Of a stretch of 64,000 bases of DNA, positions 28,698 to 37,640 are shown in pieces. The stretch is from positions 1,728,001-1,792,000 of the forward strand of contig CAWIGG010000002.1 of the NCBI GenBank assembly GCA_963835575.1. Direction: 5' to 3'. The translations under genes were made by a program, and so were the position numbers. Numbering within the stretch: position 1 is the first letter of the stretch; the number at the start of each line of letters is the position of its first letter. The notes below the pieces were generated by a model that had not been told where the DNA came from, did no database searches, and saw only the letters and a program-made list of their open reading frames with translations. The stretch comes from an uncultured Spirochaetota bacterium. GTDB lineage: Bacteria > Spirochaetota > Brevinematia > Brevinematales > JAOACQ01.

Positions 28698-29333
28698 TTA
28701 TTTGATCTTCTCTTTTAAATTCATATTAAGTTCCTTTGAAATTTCATCCAGATCATATACCTTCAATTCCTGTGTATTTTTGTCATAAAACAGCCTGGCG
28801 TCCTGTTTCGCCATCAAATAATAATTTTCCGTATTCTTTTTACAGACGATGAACCGGTAAGCAGTATCTTTTAAAACCGGCAGCCAGTTATCCATGCTGT
28901 CTATGATTTCCATCATTTTATCCCCTGAAAACCCCAGGTCGCTTTTCAATTTCCCCAGGAGGGAAATAAAGATCAATTCAATAAAATTAAATCGGTCTTT
29001 TTGAAGAGCCTTTTCAAATAACGCCAGAATTTCCGGGTCCAGGCCTGCCGCCTCATTCAGGTCGCCGGCATTAAAAGTCAGTTTAGTCAACTCAGGCGAG
29101 ATCATATTAGCCAGCTCTTCCAGGGAATAGCGGTCTTTCAATTCAAGAATACCGGAAATTCTATTGAGTATTTTTTTCCTCGGAAAAAAGGTTTCCTGTC
29201 CTGTGAAAGAAGCTTTTTTAATAAACCAAGCTTCCGGCAGAAGATTTTCCCGCTTCCAGCGGTAGAGCTGGCCGTAGGATATTTTTGTCAATTGCAGTAA
29301 ATCCTTTTTTGAAATCAGATCATTTTCTTCCAT
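28698..29333 (-). CDS. YhbD-like (DUF4004) HTH regulator
   Basis: LISKKDLLQLTKISYGQLYRWKR.NLLPE.WFIKK.SFTGQETFFP. Confidence 0.88.
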   Translation of the reverse strand: MEENDLISKKDLLQLTKISYGQLYRWKRENLLPEAWFIKKASFTGQETFFPRKKILNRISGILELKDRYSLEELANMISPELTKLTFNAGDLNEAAGLDPEILALFEKALQKDRFNFIELIFISLLGKLKSDLGFSGDKMMEIIDSMDNWLPVLKDTAYRFIVCKKNTENYYLMAKQDARLFYDKNTQELKVYDLDEISKELNMNLKEKIK

Positions 29334-29343
29334 GTATATCCCC

Positions 29344-29429
29344 TAACATAACATTTGTTCTGCAAATTTAATCACATTAACGCAACAATGTTTTGTTACG
29401 TTAATAATATAACATAACATTGTTACGTT
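29344..29429. promoter_or_regulatory. Candidate autoregulatory operators upstream of the yhbD-like gene
   Basis: Repeated AACRYAACA half-sites, including IR TAACGCAACA-N6-TGTTACGTTA. Confidence 0.5.
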
Positions 29430-29564
29430 GTCAAGATTTTTAAAATAATTTTTTATAATGCATCATTTTTATAGAAAATTAAGTTTATAAATTAACTAAT
29501 AGCTTTGAAATTTTTATTTTGTCGGGTTTGATCTTTAGCGGGCGTTAAAAGCAGATGTTTAACA

Positions 29565-29581
29565 CTGCCAGTATTTGACAG
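29565..29581. promoter_or_regulatory. Candidate WYL-regulator operator 1
   Basis: CTGCC-N7-GACAG palindrome upstream of the WYL gene; matches the site at 30562. Confidence 0.6.
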
Positions 29582-29628
29582 TGATCAATATTATGATTTA
29601 TTATAAACATTATCAGGAGGATATATTT

Positions 29629-30540
29629 ATGAAAACATCCACACCGAAATTTTCCAATTTTCTGAGAATTTTTGAAATACTGTCTGAGACCAGATGGACA
29701 AAAGCTTTTGAAATCGCCATGGAATTGGATGTCTCAGAAAGGACTATCTGGCGGTATATCGCACAGATCAATGATGGATTCCCTGATTACCCTGTTATTG
29801 AAAGTTCGAAAGAGGGATATCGGCTGGTTAAAAACGATTTTTTAACTTTTCTCAGGAAACGGGAAGATGATTCCTTTGCATTAGAAGCCGTACTTAGTCA
29901 ATCACCGCTTGGCACGATTATTTCCAGAAAATCAGGGGGACAGGAAGTATTTTTATCCAAGCTGGCCGGCCGGCTGGAATTGAAAACCAGTATTCCGGCT
30001 GATAAACTTCGCCCGATATTTAATGCGCTCATGAAGTCAAGGTGCCTGATAACGCAATACCATAAGAACAAAGAAATTAATTCTATAGAATTCGTTCCAT
30101 TACGTCTGGTTATGGAACACAATATTCCCTATCTTAATATACTGGATTTAGATGACGTAATAATTAAACTCATTGCCATCGACAAAATGGAAGAAATCCG
30201 GATTTCCGAAAAGATCGTCGATCCGAAAGAAATTGAAAAACACCGGCTTTTCCTGCAAAGCGCCTGGGGAATAATGATAACAGAAAATATTCATAACGTC
30301 AGGTTTCAGGTGATCAGTGATATTTTACCCTATTTCAAAAATACGTCTATTCATTCTTCTCAAAAGTTTATTACAGTTGATAACCCGTTTTCGGTGATCA
30401 GTGTGGATGTACATAATCTGAGAGAATTTGTCCGTTTTACGCTCCGTTTCGGAAGAGCGATAAAGATCATTGATCCAGAGGAAGCGATAGAGGAAGTACA
30501 TGAATTTCTGGAAGATATGCTGAATTATTATAAAAAATAA
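29629..30540 (+). CDS. WYL-domain transcriptional regulator (HTH-WYL-WCX)
   Basis: EIAMELDVSERTIWRYI HTH, P.RL..YL..AIDKM WYL core, IH.SQ and FG..IKIIDP WCX; RBS AGGAGG. Confidence 0.9.
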   Translation: MKTSTPKFSNFLRIFEILSETRWTKAFEIAMELDVSERTIWRYIAQINDGFPDYPVIESSKEGYRLVKNDFLTFLRKREDDSFALEAVLSQSPLGTIISRKSGGQEVFLSKLAGRLELKTSIPADKLRPIFNALMKSRCLITQYHKNKEINSIEFVPLRLVMEHNIPYLNILDLDDVIIKLIAIDKMEEIRISEKIVDPKEIEKHRLFLQSAWGIMITENIHNVRFQVISDILPYFKNTSIHSSQKFITVDNPFSVISVDVHNLREFVRFTLRFGRAIKIIDPEEAIEEVHEFLEDMLNYYKK

Positions 30541-30561
30541 ATTCCACTTAAATTATTATCC

Positions 30562-30578
30562 CTGACTAAATATGACAG
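30562..30578. promoter_or_regulatory. Candidate WYL-regulator operator 2
   Basis: CTGAC-N7-GACAG upstream of the downstream gene cluster. Confidence 0.6.
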
Positions 30579-30681
30579 GATGATAAAGTACCATTTCATA
30601 TCAGATAATTTTAAAGAATTAAAATACAGATTTGTATTTTAATGGACTATAAAATAATTTAAGAAAATAAGGAGTAAATTT

Positions 30682-31227
30682 ATGAAGAACATCAACAAAT
30701 ATTCCTTACTGTTAATTCTCACTTTTATACCAATGATTGTATTCGCACAGCAGAAAAGTAGAAATTACTTAGACTATCCTATTGAATATACCCAGATATC
30801 AGGTGTTTTTAAAGGAAAACCGACACCAAGAATGTTATTCTATACACCAGGCAACCTTGTTAATATTACAAATGAAAATGGTATAACTTTAATCTGCAGA
30901 ATAGATAAAAAGACAAGAAAAAACAACGGTGAAACTTATTATCTCTCATTAAATCAGGGTAAAAAGAAAATATTGTTATTTCAAATATCACTTCAAATAA
31001 ATGATGATGAAGAATGCAGCTACATGACCTATTTTAAAGTAAAAAATGTTGAATCCGGTTTAATTTCAGAGTTTAGTTATGACGCTGATGATACAGTGAC
31101 ATCTTTTGGCCGCATAATGGGCGGATTCTCTGGAACAGCTCAATATATGTTTAATATTGATCAATTGAATAAAAGTTTTGAGGATAAAAGTGATTCGAAT
31201 ACAACAAACAAATCTTTATCGGAATAG
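30682..31227 (+). CDS. Exported hypothetical protein
   Basis: Signal peptide ending VFA-Q; RBS AAGGAG. Confidence 0.75.
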   Translation: MKNINKYSLLLILTFIPMIVFAQQKSRNYLDYPIEYTQISGVFKGKPTPRMLFYTPGNLVNITNENGITLICRIDKKTRKNNGETYYLSLNQGKKKILLFQISLQINDDEECSYMTYFKVKNVESGLISEFSYDADDTVTSFGRIMGGFSGTAQYMFNIDQLNKSFEDKSDSNTTNKSLSE

Positions 31228-31315
31228 CTATTTTAAGTAGTACAAATATATTTGTACTTAATTATGTCTAGATCTATAATGGGATTACTTCCTATTGGGA
31301 GATGGAGGTTTTAGA

Positions 31316-31924
31316 ATGAGCCATATTAAAATTCTACCTTGGAAAGGTAAAGATTATGACACTTCTTCATTTGGCAAAAAAATCCTAATAGTTGGTGAGT
31401 CCCATTACAATGGTGAAAATCAATTACTACGAGATGATGAAATTCGAAATTTTACTATCAATACAATAGGAGAGATTAGTAATAGCGTTTGGACTCATGC
31501 TTACTTCACAAAAATTGCCGCTTCCTTTATTGGAAATAATCCTGATCAAGATATGAAAAAGAAATTTTGGAATTCGATATCATTTTGTAATTTTGTTCAG
31601 GTTATATTTTCAGGACCTAGAATCCAACCTTCAGAGGATGAATACAATAATTCGTTATCTGCTTTTTCCGAAATACTGACTGACTTAAAACCACAACTGT
31701 TAGTTATCTTGAGTTATGGAACTTGGAATCATATACAAAATATTACTGAAATTAAAATATCTAAGAAAGAAAAGGTTTTTATAGAAGGAAAATATGTTGA
31801 ACCGTTTTCAATAAAGTTTGAAAATTTAACTTGTCTTGTTCTAGTATTGCCACATCCATCAACGAAGGAATGGGGCTCTGTATCCTGGTATTCATTTATT
31901 AAAAAGCTGATTGAAATGGCTTAA
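31316..31924 (+). CDS. Uracil-DNA glycosylase superfamily protein
   Basis: ILIVGESHY (motif A-like), F.NFVQ, LKP.LLVIL, LPHPS (motif B). Confidence 0.72.
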   Translation: MSHIKILPWKGKDYDTSSFGKKILIVGESHYNGENQLLRDDEIRNFTINTIGEISNSVWTHAYFTKIAASFIGNNPDQDMKKKFWNSISFCNFVQVIFSGPRIQPSEDEYNNSLSAFSEILTDLKPQLLVILSYGTWNHIQNITEIKISKKEKVFIEGKYVEPFSIKFENLTCLVLVLPHPSTKEWGSVSWYSFIKKLIEMA

Positions 31925-31947
31925 TTAAAATAAAAAGGGACGCCAAT

Positions 31948-32127
31948 ATGGTTCAAACATTCCTTAGCACTGTTATTAATAACGATATCGAATACATAAA
32001 ACATTACCAGGTTGATGTCAACGTTTCTGATGAAGACGGAATAACGGCTTTAATATTTGCGATAAGGGATGAGAATGTTTTTTTGGAATGGCCGTGTCGT
32101 CCTACCGTGGAAATGGTCATATTTTGA
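31948..32127 (+). pseudogene. Truncated duplicate of the ankyrin gene 5' end
   Basis: MVQTFLSTVINNDIEYIKHYQVDVNVSDEDGITALIFAIR matches the N-terminus of 32996..33757, then diverges and stops. Confidence 0.8.
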
Positions 32128-32186
32128 TACTAACTAACTCTTAAAAAAGAAAAATAACAAATTATTATATTATAGAAGGTGCAAAT

Positions 32187-32924
32187 ATGAAAGATGCTTT
32201 AAAAAATCTATATAGCGAATTGTTGATTCACATTAAAGAAAATAAAGATAATTTTCCAGAGTCAAACCTCTGTGTCTTCACTCCTGCAAAGGGTGTGGAA
32301 TATAATAATGATTTATTATTTATAGGAAGAGCAGTAAATGGTTGGGGCAACTATATTGAAAAGGATAAAAATGAATTCTTTATAAATAAATTTAATGATG
32401 TCTGTAAAAGTTATGATGATGAAAACTTGAATTGGATTATAGAAAAGTGGGGAGCTTCAATAGGATACAATACAAAAAAATCAGCTTTTTGGCGATTAAT
32501 AAAAACCATCTCTGATGAATTTTATAAAGATGATATTAATTCAGTAAACAAAGTATCATGGAATAATTTATATAAGATTTCTAATGACAAGGGCGGAAAT
32601 CCATCTTCATCATTAATGAATATTCAATTTGAACTATGTAGAAAGATTTTAAAGCTTGAAATTGAAACATTTAATCCAAAATTCACGATTTTTTTAACAG
32701 GACTTGGCTGGGCTGGAGATTTTATACAACAAGATGATTTTACTGGTTTAGAAACAGATGGCTTAACGTTTGTTGAATTCATTGGTTTGAATAAAAAAGA
32801 CAAGAATGTGTTTATAGTAAGTAAACATCCACAAGGAAAACCAGAAAAAAAACATGCGGAAGAAATAATCAAAGTAATGAAGGATGCCGCAGAAAACAGT
32901 CAGTCAAAAACAAAAATATTATAA
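32187..32924 (+). CDS. Uracil-DNA glycosylase superfamily protein (second type)
   Basis: LLFIGRAVNGW, SAFW, WNNLYKI, EI...NPK..IFLTG, KHPQ. Confidence 0.68.
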   Translation: MKDALKNLYSELLIHIKENKDNFPESNLCVFTPAKGVEYNNDLLFIGRAVNGWGNYIEKDKNEFFINKFNDVCKSYDDENLNWIIEKWGASIGYNTKKSAFWRLIKTISDEFYKDDINSVNKVSWNNLYKISNDKGGNPSSSLMNIQFELCRKILKLEIETFNPKFTIFLTGLGWAGDFIQQDDFTGLETDGLTFVEFIGLNKKDKNVFIVSKHPQGKPEKKHAEEIIKVMKDAAENSQSKTKIL

Positions 32925-32995
32925 AATAAAAAACGTCATCTGTGGCTTTTATTAAATATTTATTCGAAAAACAGCAATAAGAAAAGGATGTCAAA

Positions 32996-33757
32996 ATGAT
33001 TCAAACATTTCTAAGCGCCGTTACAAATAACAATATCGAATTCATAAGGCATTACCAGGGTGATGTCAATGTTTCTGATGAACAAGGATTGACGGCTTTA
33101 ATGGTTGCGATAAGGTATGGTCATTCCGGAATTAAGAAAGTTTTGATTGAGGAAGGCGCTAATGTCAATATGAAGGATAAAGACGGCTGGACAGCCCTGT
33201 TTTATTCAGCCATTAAAGAACATTCTGACGATATAAAGATATTAATTGAGGCCGGGGCAGTAATCAACTCTGTTGATAAATACGGACAGACAGCATTAAT
33301 GCTGGCGGCAAGTGATGGTTATACCGAAACTCTAAAGACTTTGATTGGTTCCGGCGCAGATGTTCATGCGGTTTCAAAACAGGGCTATACAGCTTTATCG
33401 CTGGCGGCATTTTGGGGGAAAACTGAAAACGTTAAAGTCTTGATAGAGGCTGGGGCTAAAAGCGAAGAAGATAAAAGTGGTTTTACGGCATTGATGTTAG
33501 CTTCTGCTATAGGCAATATCGAGTCCATCAAAAGACTGATTGCTGAAAAGGCGGATGTCAATGCGGCAGATTCGCATAATTGGACAGCTTTGAGATATGC
33601 GACAGCTAACTGTCAAACAGAGAGTATTAAGGCATTGATCGAAGCTGGCGCCGATGTTAATGTTAAGGATAAAAACGGCGATTCACTTTTATCTATTGCT
33701 TATAAAACAAAATATGTCGCTATCATCAATATTTTGAAAAAGGCAGGAGCGAAATAG
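32996..33757 (+). CDS. Ankyrin repeat protein
   Basis: About 7 G.TAL..A...G......LI..GADVN repeats. Confidence 0.95.
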   Translation: MIQTFLSAVTNNNIEFIRHYQGDVNVSDEQGLTALMVAIRYGHSGIKKVLIEEGANVNMKDKDGWTALFYSAIKEHSDDIKILIEAGAVINSVDKYGQTALMLAASDGYTETLKTLIGSGADVHAVSKQGYTALSLAAFWGKTENVKVLIEAGAKSEEDKSGFTALMLASAIGNIESIKRLIAEKADVNAADSHNWTALRYATANCQTESIKALIEAGADVNVKDKNGDSLLSIAYKTKYVAIINILKKAGAK

Positions 33758-33763
33758 TCTTGT

Positions 33764-34261
33764 ATGAATAAAACATTTACAGCCATTGATTTTGAAACAG
33801 CTAATTATGAACGCTCCAGTATTTGTCAGGTCGGTCTTGTCAGGGTAGAGAATGGTATAGTGGTTCATAAGATAAATAAGCTAGTCAGACCTCAGCCAAA
33901 TTATTATCTTGAATGGTTTACAAATGATGTACATGGCATATCAACTGAAGATACTGATGATGCACCTGTTTTTTCAGATATTTGGGAAGAAATTTTTTCG
34001 TATATAGAAGGACAGGATGTCGTTGCTCATAATGGTTTTGCCTTTGATTTTGTTTGCTTATCAAAAACATTAGAATACTATAATATTCCAGTGCCAGAAT
34101 ACAAAAAACATTGTACATATAAAATCTTCGGAGAAAATCTCGAAGTTCTATGTGATAGGTATAATATACAACTTAATCATCATAATGCATTGTCTGATGC
34201 TGAGGCATGCGCCGTTCTGTTTCTAAAACATTTAAAAAATGAATTTAGGAATAAGCAATGA
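33764..34261 (+). CDS. DEDDh 3'-5' exonuclease (DnaQ-like)
   Basis: IDFET, AHN..FD, HHNALSDA. Confidence 0.92.
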   Translation: MNKTFTAIDFETANYERSSICQVGLVRVENGIVVHKINKLVRPQPNYYLEWFTNDVHGISTEDTDDAPVFSDIWEEIFSYIEGQDVVAHNGFAFDFVCLSKTLEYYNIPVPEYKKHCTYKIFGENLEVLCDRYNIQLNHHNALSDAEACAVLFLKHLKNEFRNKQ

Positions 34262-34650
34262 TACAAATTGATTTATGTAAGGACGGTTATTTATACATCA
34301 TTTATGCAAGAAATGCAAAAATCGGAATATTTGACGCTCAAAGTAAAGGATTCAGGATTAGTCGATTTAAGTTCGATAGAAATTACAAATTCGTTGAATA
34401 TCATTGGGATAAAAGCTGGGATTCAGGTTGGGATACAGAGTCGAAAGGGACAGTCAGGCCCTATAAAGAATTGTTTAGACCCAGGAAATTGAATTCCGAA
34501 GTGGAATTCCTGGAATTCATGAATGATTACAATAATAAAAATGAAGAAGAAATATTAAATGTATTAAAGGAATTTATTAAGGATGATAATGGACTGGATA
34601 TCGATAGCCGCATGTTATATCTGGATTGTTTGAAGGAAAGGGGAAAGTGA
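34258..34650 (+). CDS. Hypothetical protein
   Basis: 130-aa ORF overlapping the exonuclease stop region. Confidence 0.7.
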   Translation: MIQIDLCKDGYLYIIYARNAKIGIFDAQSKGFRISRFKFDRNYKFVEYHWDKSWDSGWDTESKGTVRPYKELFRPRKLNSEVEFLEFMNDYNNKNEEEILNVLKEFIKDDNGLDIDSRMLYLDCLKERGK

Positions 34651-34722
34651 TGCTATATAATATTTCAAGCGACTCTTCAGTAGAACTTGAACTTAATACT
34701 GAATTTCGAAATGGGGAAATTT

Positions 34723-36027
34723 ATGATTTTTGAGAATATAAGTATAGAAAAGCAATTTATCAATGGGTTGCTGCATAATCAGGATATTTTTCCAATTATC
34801 ATAAATCGTCTAAAGGAAAATGATTTTTTTGACAAGGATTGCGGCCTTGCATATAAATTAATGCGGGAAGATTATTGCACAAAACGAAAAATTGACCTGT
34901 CAAAATTATTGTCTGTTATGGAAGCCCCATCTTATTATTGGCTGTTTTATGATTATGCGGTTAATGAACAATACAATTATATCAGCAAAAATGAACTGCT
35001 GGTAATGACCAATCAAATTTTAGAAATGTCGAGTAATAGGCAAATAAGAGAAAATATAAATATATTAAACCGGAAAGATAGCTTTGAAGCAATCTCAAGG
35101 CATGTGTTAATTCAATGGCTGGACAAACAGATGATGATTTTAAATAAAAATTGTCATCTTCCTGAAATTACAAGTATTAACCAGCTATTCAGTCCTAATT
35201 TTAAAGATACAACCAATTACCATACCGGTTACCAAAATTTTGACAACATGTCGGGAGGAATCCATAATGGCGAACTCTGGGTTATATGCGGCGATAGATG
35301 TATTGGTAAAACTGCTTTTATAATCCCCCCTATATTTGAATTCGTAAAAAAAGGTTTCGAGACGCTTTTTATTTCCGCCGGTTTATCAGAATCAGAAATG
35401 GCAATAAGATTATTATCTTTTCTAACAGGAATCAATATTAAATCCTGTTCATCATTATATAAACATCACCCGCTATCTCAGGATATGGAAAAGGTCATAA
35501 AAGAAATGCAAAATATTCCTCTTCATTTTTTCTTTGATAAAGGCTTGACTGTGAACAAAGTCCGTGATTATCTTAAACAGGAACCAGTCAAAATTTTAGC
35601 AATTGATGGAACCGAATATTTAAGGGCAAACAAGTTAAGATGGAAAGGCCGTAGTTATCTGGATGAAATAGAAGATCCTTTAGAAGTTGAGTTGACCGAC
35701 CGTCAGAACATTTTATGGGAAGAAACATTTTTTGCATTAAAAAATATCGCTAAAGATTATAATATTCCTGTAATTGTTACATGCATGATCAATACGGTTA
35801 AACAGGATCATGAATTTGATAAAGAATGCAAATTAATCTCCCGGATGCCCCCTGGATTAATTGAATATTCAGATTTAGCGGCAGTTATTAATCGCTTGGG
35901 TTATTTTTCAAAGGATGATCCGGAATATACTTTATTGGAAGTTATACATAATAAAAATGGCTCCTCTGGTGATATTAATTTGTCTTTCAATAAAGAATCA
36001 TGGATTTATCAGGAATCAATTTATTGA
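34723..36027 (+). CDS. Degenerate DnaB-like helicase
   Basis: DnaB N-domain (EK..I..LL, L..NDF), TGY.NFD..SGG...GEL, GKT. Later catalytic motifs are altered. Confidence 0.8.
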   Translation: MIFENISIEKQFINGLLHNQDIFPIIINRLKENDFFDKDCGLAYKLMREDYCTKRKIDLSKLLSVMEAPSYYWLFYDYAVNEQYNYISKNELLVMTNQILEMSSNRQIRENINILNRKDSFEAISRHVLIQWLDKQMMILNKNCHLPEITSINQLFSPNFKDTTNYHTGYQNFDNMSGGIHNGELWVICGDRCIGKTAFIIPPIFEFVKKGFETLFISAGLSESEMAIRLLSFLTGINIKSCSSLYKHHPLSQDMEKVIKEMQNIPLHFFFDKGLTVNKVRDYLKQEPVKILAIDGTEYLRANKLRWKGRSYLDEIEDPLEVELTDRQNILWEETFFALKNIAKDYNIPVIVTCMINTVKQDHEFDKECKLISRMPPGLIEYSDLAAVINRLGYFSKDDPEYTLLEVIHNKNGSSGDINLSFNKESWIYQESIY

Positions 36028-36041
36028 ATGGCTTTAGTGTT

Positions 36042-36181
36042 GACCCCAATACTTTGACAGGCTCAGTACAAGTTTTACAGGATTACTCAGGATTTATCAT
36101 GATCATTTTTTAGAATCTTCGATTTTATTTTTTGATCCTGTGCATCCTGTGGTATCAAGTAAATCCTGTTGAATTGGGGTC
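36042..36181. repeat. Long imperfect inverted repeat at the right edge of the WYL island
   Basis: GACCCCAAT...ATTGGGGTC with CAGGAT/ATCCTG periodic arms and a nested CTTTGACAGGCTCAGT unit. Confidence 0.75.
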
Positions 36182-36458
36182 GGAATAATTAAGATATTTC
36201 TAATTTTAACTTTCCGTTCAGACACTATTTAAGCTATTAAAATCGCTCAATTTATATTAACTTGTTATATAGATTTTAATTGCAAAAAAATAAAACCCAA
36301 ACTACAATATCGAATAGTGTGAATAAAGTTCTCCATACTATATAAAATAAATATTTATTATTCTAAATGACAGGCCTGATTATAAAAATTTCATAATACC
36401 GGTCTCGACTATATCGCGGTATTTTTTGATAAAAAATATTTTATAGAAGGAGATAATT

Positions 36459-37640
36459 ATGAGGAAAAAAGAGAAAATCAGCAGGGTCTCTAAACTGATT
36501 GTAATGTTTATTGCTTTTACTTTATTCATTTGTTTTATGCCGGGAACGGCCGGAGCTGCGGGAAATACCGTTAAAATAGGCGCCATCTTTTCTGTAACCG
36601 GGCCGGCTGCCTATTTAGGCGCTCCCGAAGAAAAGACAGCCGTAATGCTGGTGGAAGAAATCAATAAAAACGGCGGGATTAACGGCGCGCAGATTGAGCT
36701 CATCATTAAAGATTCCGGCGGAAGCCCTGAAAAGGCCATTTCCTTCGCGAAACAGCTTATTGAAGAAGACAAAGTTGCCGCCATCATCGGGCCGACAACA
36801 AGCGGCGAATCGATGGCCATAAAAGACCTCTGTGAAAAATCAAAAATGCCCCTTATTTCCTGCGCAGCTGCGGAAACCATAGTCGATCCGATAGCGCATT
36901 ATGTCTTTAAAACCCCCCAGAATGACAGCTATGTCGTGAAATGGATTTACGGAACAATGAAGAAGAAAGGCATAAAAAAGATCGCCGTAGTCTCTTCAAA
37001 CACCGGCTTCGGCGCCGGCGGAAAAGCCCAGCTTGAGAAATACGCCGCCGAATATGGAATTACCATAGTCATCTCGGAAGTTTATGATAAAGCCGCCACA
37101 GATCTTTCCGCTCTTCTGACCAAGGTTAAATCGACCGACGCGCAGGCTTTAGTCAACTGGTCCATTGAACCGGCGCAGTCCATTATCGCTAAAAACATGA
37201 AGCAGATCAATATGACCATACCCCTTTTCCAGAGCCATGGTTTCGGCAACATCAAATATGTTGAAGCGGCAGGCGAAGCCGCCGAAGGTATTATATTCCC
37301 CTGCGGAAGGCTTTTAATCGCCGAAGAACTGCCGGACACCAATCCCCAGAAGAAGCTCCTGATGGCTTATAAAACCGATTATGAAACAAAGTATAAGGAA
37401 CAGACCAGCACTTTCGGCGGCCATGCATATGACGCGATCCTTGTCCTGAAAACAGCTATTGAAATGTCAAAAAGCACAGACAGCGATAAGATCGTCGAAG
37501 CGATTGAGAAGATCACAAATCTACCCGGTACGGCCGGCATATTTAATTTTTCATCCAAAGACCATAACGGTCTAGGTATGGATTCGATTGAAATGCTGAC
37601 AGTAAAGAACGGCAAATTCACTCTGTATAAAGGCAAATAG
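36459..37640 (+). CDS. Liv-family ABC transporter substrate-binding protein
   Basis: KIGA.FS.TGP, IN..GGING, AIIGP..S, AYDA. Confidence 0.92.
   Translation: MRKKEKISRVSKLIVMFIAFTLFICFMPGTAGAAGNTVKIGAIFSVTGPAAYLGAPEEKTAVMLVEEINKNGGINGAQIELIIKDSGGSPEKAISFAKQLIEEDKVAAIIGPTTSGESMAIKDLCEKSKMPLISCAAAETIVDPIAHYVFKTPQNDSYVVKWIYGTMKKKGIKKIAVVSSNTGFGAGGKAQLEKYAAEYGITIVISEVYDKAATDLSALLTKVKSTDAQALVNWSIEPAQSIIAKNMKQINMTIPLFQSHGFGNIKYVEAAGEAAEGIIFPCGRLLIAEELPDTNPQKKLLMAYKTDYETKYKEQTSTFGGHAYDAILVLKTAIEMSKSTDSDKIVEAIEKITNLPGTAGIFNFSSKDHNGLGMDSIEMLTVKNGKFTLYKGK

Follow-up and report, generated by a model that had tools for sequence, protein, structure and literature searches.

The DNA stretch analysed here, 64,000 nucleotides of contig CAWIGG010000002.1 from an uncultured Spirochaetota bacterium (assembly GCA_963835575.1) and referred to below as the window, carries at positions 29565-36181 an island of eight genes that share the plus strand, plus one ankyrin remnant. 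The order of the genes is WYL regulator, g2, UDG1, ankyrin remnant, UDG2, ankyrin, DEDDh, g7 and DnaB-like, with UDG standing for uracil-DNA glycosylase. In the following list, in which HTH is helix-turn-helix and wHTH its winged form, all coordinates are those of the window.

29565..29597, plus strand: predicted WYL box 1 (sequence pattern), CTGCCA-N5-TGACAG, 10-nt spacer, -10-like TATGAT
29629..30540, plus strand: wHTH-WYL-WCX regulator, 303 aa, ATG start with ribosome site
30562..30594, plus strand: predicted WYL box 2 (sequence pattern), CTGACT-N5-TGACAG, 10-nt spacer, -10-like TACCAT
30682..31227, plus strand: g2, 181-aa orphan with a signal-peptide-like N-terminus (read from sequence)
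31316..31924, plus strand: UDG1, 202 aa, likely UDG-superfamily protein, GESHY and HPS motifs conserved in the family
31948..32127, plus strand: ankyrin remnant, 59 codons, the first 40 being 72.5% identical to the intact ankyrin gene and the rest unrelated
32187..32924, plus strand: UDG2, 245 aa, UDG-fold protein of a widespread unnamed family, GRAVN, GGNP and HPQGK motifs
32996..33757, plus strand: ankyrin-repeat protein, 253 aa, Ank_2
33764..34261, plus strand: stand-alone DEDDh 3'-5' exonuclease, 165 aa, RNase_T at E 2e-17, D9/E11/D95/H140/D145 intact
34258..34650, plus strand: g7, 130 aa, unnamed family, predicted small SH3/PWWP-like barrel, start overlapping the DEDDh stop
34723..36027, plus strand: DnaB-like predicted pseudo-helicase, 434 aa, both DnaB domains, catalytic motifs degenerate
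36042..36181, no strand: hairpin repeat copy with ends GACCCCAAT...ATTGGGGTC, marking the right end of the island

A previous description of the window, made from the letters and open reading frames only (the sequence-only reading), had pointed out a co-oriented, AT-rich run of genes behind a WYL regulator. All genes named there were found in place and on the plus strand, and the GC content of the island is 33.0% as compared to 42.0% in the whole window, a value as low being reached in 2.0% of the windows of the same length across the 4.39-Mb genome. The list of genes was correct as far as it went but incomplete, since g2 (30682-31227), g7 (34258-34650) and the 59-codon ankyrin remnant (31948-32127) were absent from it. 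A Pfam scan of the island returned HTH_11, WYL and WCX, Ank_2, RNase_T, and DnaB together with DnaB_C. The PADLOC models gave single-domain matches only (WYL, the ankyrin part of PDC-M72A and the DEDDh part of PDC-S48), and no PADLOC component-model set was matched by the island proteins. On both sides the island is bordered by host genes, a divergent DUF4004-bactofilin operon and a branched-chain transporter operon; because these two operons are not adjacent in relatives, an empty site is not definable.

The long inverted repeat that had been seen to close the island is real as a fold, as the sequence 36042-36181 folds better than 200 of 200 shuffled versions (z -3.74), but it is no special feature of the island. 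In the whole genome there are 36 occurrences of its end motif, as compared to 4, 3 and 1 in three shuffled genomes, a matching other end lies within 200 nt for 4 of these 36 occurrences, and an 86% identical copy is present at C2:1615106; no match to a terminator or to Rfam was obtained for 36042-36181. The closing repeat is a dispersed genomic element and the island is not defined by it. This imperfect hairpin repeat, made of ATCCTG units and ending in AATTGGGGTC, is dispersed over about 30 other places of the genome (G000), which also has 5 open reading frames with the GxxExxY motif; such repeats may be linked to GxxExxY genes.

The regulator gene is taken to start at the ATG at 29629, the alternative TTG at 29575 falling within WYL box 1. 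Its product combines the wHTH, WYL and WCX domains by which WYL transcription factors are recognised (HTH_11 at E 8e-9, WCX over the cut-off, Pfam WYL just under it at E 0.002, and PADLOC WYL at E 2e-16). The HTH retains R38 and R42, an arginine pair in i,i+4 spacing of the kind that reads DNA in PafB and SiwR (PMC10693628, PMC8635444). In the WYL domain, the tryptophan is gone from the island protein, which has IPYL, and from its 7 closest relatives. The pocket arginines are substituted by K180, A183 and K186 (sequence K180-L-I-A-I-D-K186), residues which were mapped onto PafB R208/R211/R214 by spacing only, and the R-x-F-x-x-x-R pocket motif ends in K in all 7 close relatives and in R in the other complete WYL rows. 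The conserved W-Y-L and the R-x-F-R/x-x-x-R pocket of WYL proteins that sense single-stranded DNA (ssDNA) are thus missing. PafBC depends on R208/R211/R214 of PafB for ssDNA binding (PMC11804915), and because these PafBC-type arginines are replaced, ssDNA sensing by the island WYL subfamily is uncertain. The locus contains one WYL gene rather than the two adjacent ones of the PafBC heterodimer, and this gene has no match in 11 other genomes of the same family. Elsewhere, at G000:C2:819162-819479, a short WYL-like HTH fragment was read from the sequence immediately 5' of cas3-like and cas-like genes.

Two palindromes of the TG(A/T)CA-N5-TG(A/T)CA type, at 29565 and 30562, flank the WYL gene. 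Both end in TGACAG followed by N10-TAnnnT, with -10-like hexamers TATGAT at 29592-29597 and TACCAT at 30589-30594, and they are the sole such pairs of half site and -10 element on the plus strand of 29300-36500. Both boxes therefore show the PafBC-type arrangement of a TGTC-type element 10 nt before TAnnnT, and box 2 (30562..30594), for which no -35 match was found, is the predicted promoter of the cargo operon. That the island is under WYL control had been proposed before, and is now backed by the existence of these predicted sites and by their recurrence near WYL genes of other genomes: a box was found near 11 of 28 WYL genes of a phylum sample as compared to 5 of 163 control windows, and within the 4.39 Mb the island boxes come 7th and 40th when scored with a matrix that was built on 9 boxes from other genomes. 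Of 43 non-coding boxes located near WYL genes in other genomes, 17 have TAnnnT at offset 10 and 12 at offset 11, and no other offset from 4 to 19 has it in more than 8. The genome G013, whose WYL protein is 38% identical to that of the island, has like boxes just upstream and just downstream of the WYL gene and another before an operon of UDG, DEDDh and g7 genes. Some island genes are separated by gaps of 60-260 nt; between the genes, terminator-like sites with a clear U-tract are not found beyond chance (4 found, 3.1 expected). In a second group of WYL loci (L121-L144) the box lies 11 and not 10 bases before TAnnnT (12 of the 43 boxes), which suggests a clade-specific promoter spacing.

The known WYL activators PafBC, SiwR, DriD and DdaA have the wHTH-WYL-WCX layout in common with the island protein (PMC8635444, PMC11804915, PMC10693628, PMC13004042, PMC12392091) and share its i,i+4 HTH arginine pair, whereas in the island subfamily other residues stand in place of the WYL tryptophan and the pocket arginines. 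The spacing of both island boxes is that of the PafBC motif, tGTCgg(N10)tA(N3)T (PMC8635444), yet PafBC acts as a heterodimer on a half site, in contrast to a single WYL gene and palindromic sites at the island. The activator DdaA controls repair as well as restriction-modification and CRISPR genes through the motif CGWCA-N5-TGWCG (PMC12392091), with which the island boxes have the core GWCA-N5-TGWC in common but not the outer bases, and its sites, unlike the island boxes, lie ~50 bp upstream of the start. DriD sites stand at one fixed distance from the -10 element (PMC13004042), and SiwR activates adjacent genes via the -26 region (PMC10693628), similar to the control of neighbouring genes that we propose here. 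As opposed to the global regulons of the WYL activators, the cargo in question is confined to a local island. With the repressors BrxR and CapW the island shares a WYL gene in first position of a defence-like operon and an inverted repeat in the promoter, and box 1, overlapping TTGACA, resembles a repressor site of this type (PMC13622015). BrxR and CapW, however, belong to BREX or CBASS operons, and 0 of 8 island cargo proteins matched BREX or CBASS models. Since the N10 spacing to the -10 element is fixed and the second box is without a -35 match, the geometry is that of PafBC/DriD-type activation and not of BrxR/CapW repression, and the island WYL protein is thus probably an activator, a role as repressor being less likely.

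The two UDG-like proteins match Pfam UDG models under the cut-off only (UDG1 E 0.016, UDG2 E 0.0028), and neither has a sequence match in the PDB. UDG1 has an Atlas neighbour at 0.93, with UDG on 23% of its members, and conserved GESH and HPS motifs; relatives are present in 10 of 301 genomes, including two in the model. UDG2 displays the alpha/beta fold of UDGs, which lends support to the UDG-like identity first read for it. Family-4 UDGs have four Fe-S cysteines. These are not found in UDG2, as the sole nearly invariant cysteine in 66 rows of its family is C151, and TIGR00758 matches 10 of these 66 rows weakly (best E 0.003). Anti-phage glycosylases with a UDG fold have been described as Brig1, Brig2 and Brig3 (PMC11078745; bioRxiv 10.1101/2025.10.29.685425; PMC13160076), in papers whose examined parts mention WYL nowhere. 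No Brig-named model was matched by UDG1 or UDG2 in NCBIfam or PADLOC scans, the presence of Brig models in these libraries being unconfirmed; the lack of a sequence link to Brig1/2/3 accordingly refers to searches of model libraries and PDB, not to the Brig sequences themselves. Different from Brig, the island places two distinct UDG-like families in tandem under one regulator. In L041 and L086 a UDG2 relative lies within a type I restriction-modification operon, where it separates the specificity gene from the restriction gene.

The earlier reading had named a failure of these genes to co-occur elsewhere among the findings that would speak against a functional grouping. They do co-occur, as WYL, UDG-fold and DEDDh genes stand together in other genomes. 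One case is G013, of the same order and another family, which within 8.7 kb carries relatives of WYL (38% identity), UDG1 (22%), the ankyrin protein (two genes, 25-31%), DEDDh (36%) and g7 (42%), as well as a second UDG-like gene that is 25% identical to UDG2 and matches the UDG2 model at just E 3e-4. DEDDh and g7 stand behind a WYL box in the same order as in the island. The cluster additionally has genes for an AAA ATPase and a metallo-beta-lactamase, and g2 and the DnaB-like gene were not found in it. Among UDG2 loci (best 80 of 134) a WYL gene lies within about 5.5 kb of the UDG2 relative in 11, kin among which are not independent, and within 127 nt in 4; about 1 would be expected at the WYL density of this genome and 3.5 at an assumed 3 per Mb. 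DEDDh is present in 6 of the 80, and its 4 strong matches (L042, L065, L072, L114) are all with WYL; ankyrin, DnaB-like, g2, g7 and UDG1 genes were found in none. WYL lies within 1 kb in 2 of 8 further UDG1 loci, in which no ankyrin, DEDDh, g7 or DnaB match was obtained, and adjoins UDG2 in 1 of 4 viral UDG2 loci. Of 146 nearest neighbours of UDG2 that were scanned, 59 were Pfam-labelled, and about 23 of these 59, as sorted by hand and without a control set, are toxin-antitoxin, restriction-modification, nuclease, WYL or mobile-element genes. Close WYL relatives in G072, G180 and G143 accompany different cargo. Judged by gene content, the recurrent core is WYL and a UDG-fold protein, often with DEDDh, and the remainder varies. 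A literature search found no WYL-UDG module described. In G013 the shared genes stand in a larger WYL island (L017:1-16014), where they have at least 5 boxes and genes for an AAA ATPase, a metallo-beta-lactamase, a PD-(D/E)XK nuclease and a DEAD-box helicase for neighbours. In G072 (L147:3767-9104) an N10/-10 box is followed by a 776-aa DnaE-like gene limited to the PHP, NTPase and finger domains, and downstream of it by a related WYL gene, an unidentified gene and a metallo-beta-lactamase gene; this is a further case of a replisome paralogue at a WYL locus.

The DnaB-like protein contains both DnaB domains (DnaB E 9e-7, DnaB_C E 3e-18) and is encoded in addition to an intact host dnaB at C4:272324, which lies next to ssb and ribosomal genes (neighbours named by recognition). 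It is 21% identical to host DnaB and keeps 30 of the 76 columns invariant in 12 canonical DnaBs. Like replicative DnaB it has N-terminal and RecA-like C-terminal domains, the GKT of Walker A and the Walker B aspartate, but it has lost the catalytic glutamate and the SQLSR, LRESG and K-x-R motifs: host E243/Q368/R371/R388/K425/R427 align to G220/M355/T358/M375/H409/K411, in an alignment which at 21% identity could slip by one residue. The designation as a degenerate DnaB was thus apt, the catalytic glutamate and most motor residues being gone. A second, 63% identical copy is located at G000:C5:58363-59679 (L169), in an AT-rich patch without WYL, between a 242-aa gene without known identity and a transposase gene. 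Since both frames are intact and dN/dS is 0.35 over 428 codons (dS 0.67), alike in both domains, the gene is maintained as a protein under purifying selection. A profile from the two copies matched 1 of 401 genomes (E 1e-22), so that the family was found in the source genome only, and no viral contig, a protein search gave one 24% match among 4665 candidates, and the 10 phage records listed of 62 are all ordinary DnaBs of 23-25% identity. No precedent for an intact, selected, catalytically degenerate DnaB family was found in a literature search. From the retention of the fold only, we infer a binding role for this protein.

Of the remaining cargo, g2 has no Pfam, NCBIfam or PADLOC match and is present in 0 of 5 genomes. 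The beginning of the ankyrin gene, 138 nt around the start, is present a second time at 31934 (83%), which left the remnant 5' of UDG2, and the intact ankyrin protein shares 42% identity over 231 residues with a paralogue of its own genome, more than with the G013 ankyrins. The catalytic set of the DEDDh protein, D-E-D-D plus H-x4-D, is complete (position of D95 counted by hand). For g7 nothing credible was found in Pfam; among predicted viral structures the nearest are large-phage proteins without a name (E about 1e-3). Among 401 genomes g7 occurs in the source genome and G013 only. Relatives are found in at least 14 metagenome loci, mostly phage-like as read from their gene content, with no WYL or DEDDh match among them and a weak UDG1-model match upstream in one. 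The relatives in L155-L168 lie on phage-like contigs, of which L156 carries a CRISPR array and cas-like genes (read from sequence).

What, then, could hold such an assortment together? We favour, at a probability of about 0.5, a WYL-activated accessory cassette of independent, defence-leaning cargo that was gathered over time, rather than one coupled pathway; the island would on this account be a horizontally acquired, loosely built accessory operon. A WYL homodimer would bind the palindromes via R38/R42 of its HTH, would recruit RNA polymerase on binding a nucleic-acid signal, and would so activate its own gene and the cargo operon upon nucleic-acid stress. UDG1 and UDG2 may be specific for two different abnormal bases, which they would most likely cut out of modified phage DNA entering the cell, as Brig1 and Brig2 do, and DEDDh could trim the resulting or other 3' ends. 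The ankyrin gene, g2 and the pseudo-DnaB gene would be later, lineage-specific additions captured by the same promoter, with pseudo-DnaB acting through binding, as decoy or ring poison, and not through unwinding. Accretion is indicated because the ankyrin start is duplicated, the ankyrin protein is nearest to paralogues of its own genome, and a second pseudo-DnaB gene lies at an unrelated site without WYL. A stress or anti-phage role of the island is plausible, though not as a fixed system.

Several observations weigh against this view. The WYL pocket is without the arginines required by PafBC and SiwR. The box pattern was first noticed in the window, which makes the choice of sites elsewhere circular in part as far as the motif, though not the spacing, is concerned, and box 1 overlaps a TTGACA-18-TATTAT promoter match (11/12), which fits a repressor equally. 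In G013 the shared genes are spread over three transcription units, with a 10-N gap inside the cluster, and the UDG-like proteins are just 22-25% identical to those of the island. Moreover, 69 of the 80 UDG2 loci are without WYL in the DNA examined, in which some contigs are short, and in the work of Getz et al. only 1 of 7 tested integron UDG-like proteins gave protection.

Considerably less likely, but the strongest competitor, is that the same WYL-activated operon serves to repair or tolerate damage to the host's own DNA, as a mini-regulon resembling those of DriD and SiwR, in which the UDG-fold proteins would remove damaged bases, DEDDh would clean 3' ends and pseudo-DnaB would slow forks. 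The promoter geometry is indeed that of the DNA-damage activators PafBC, SiwR and DriD, and the DnaQ- and DnaB-like cargo and the DnaE-like gene behind a box in the G072 WYL locus would suit such a role. A repair function does not agree well with the AT-richness and patchy spread of these genes, the UDG1 family being limited to 10 of 301 genomes and a close WYL relative being absent from 11 family members, nor with the frequent toxin-antitoxin, restriction-modification and mobile genes beside UDG2; patchy spread and such neighbours are, according to Getz et al., the pattern of defence rather than housekeeping glycosylases.

It is unlikely that the island is a random accretion in an AT-rich insertion hotspot whose WYL protein controls just the first gene or two. 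The ankyrin remnant and the own-genome-like ankyrin would be accounted for in this way, as would the absence of g2, ankyrin and DnaB-like genes from the 80 UDG2 loci, the different cargo beside close WYL relatives in G072, G180 and G143 and the at least 14 metagenome loci with g7 and without WYL or DEDDh, and the gaps of 60-260 nt could hold other promoters. But why would DEDDh and g7 then follow each other again, in unchanged order, behind a WYL box in the sole other g7 genome of 401, and WYL be enriched near both UDG families? In addition, clear U-tract terminators between the genes do not exceed chance (4 as compared to 3.1 expected). Quite improbable, in our view, is a bolder reading in which a WYL activator subfamily of a new kind, its pocket rebuilt, responds to a signal other than plain ssDNA and switches on a two-glycosylase sweep of modified phage bases together with a dead DnaB as immune effector, which would decoy phage helicase loaders or inhibitors or poison hijacked helicase rings. 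Least probable of all is the coupled module of base excision, exonuclease and replisome mimic first proposed, in the form of a fixed anti-phage system whose glycosylases nick modified phage DNA, whose exonuclease degrades it and whose dead DnaB blocks replication, all being needed: 6 of 9 gene types do stand together in G013 and WYL-DEDDh-UDG2 recur in the Bacteroidota-labelled L042, L072 and L114, but gene order, strand and content change from locus to locus, G013 has neither a DnaB-like gene nor g2, ankyrin, g2 and DnaB-like genes are in 0 of 80 UDG2 loci, the DnaB-like family is in 1 of 401 genomes, close WYL relatives come with other cargo, the closing repeat is generic, no PADLOC component-model set was matched, and Brig-type glycosylases protect as single genes (PMC11078745).

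Under the accessory cassette that we favour, the two unnamed UDG-fold families are direct candidates for new base-specific anti-phage glycosylases and come with a testable promoter model. The activator-type geometry of box and N10/-10 would be extended to a WYL subfamily without the residues that normally bind ssDNA, so that one may ask to what other signals WYL domains respond, and an intact and selected yet catalytically degenerate DnaB family is brought to light. Outside the island, palindromic TAACAT/ATGTTA repeats at window positions 29379-29429 overlap the promoter of the host DUF4004-bactofilin operon; they are kept in 5 of 5 relatives and are likely an autoregulatory site of that operon.

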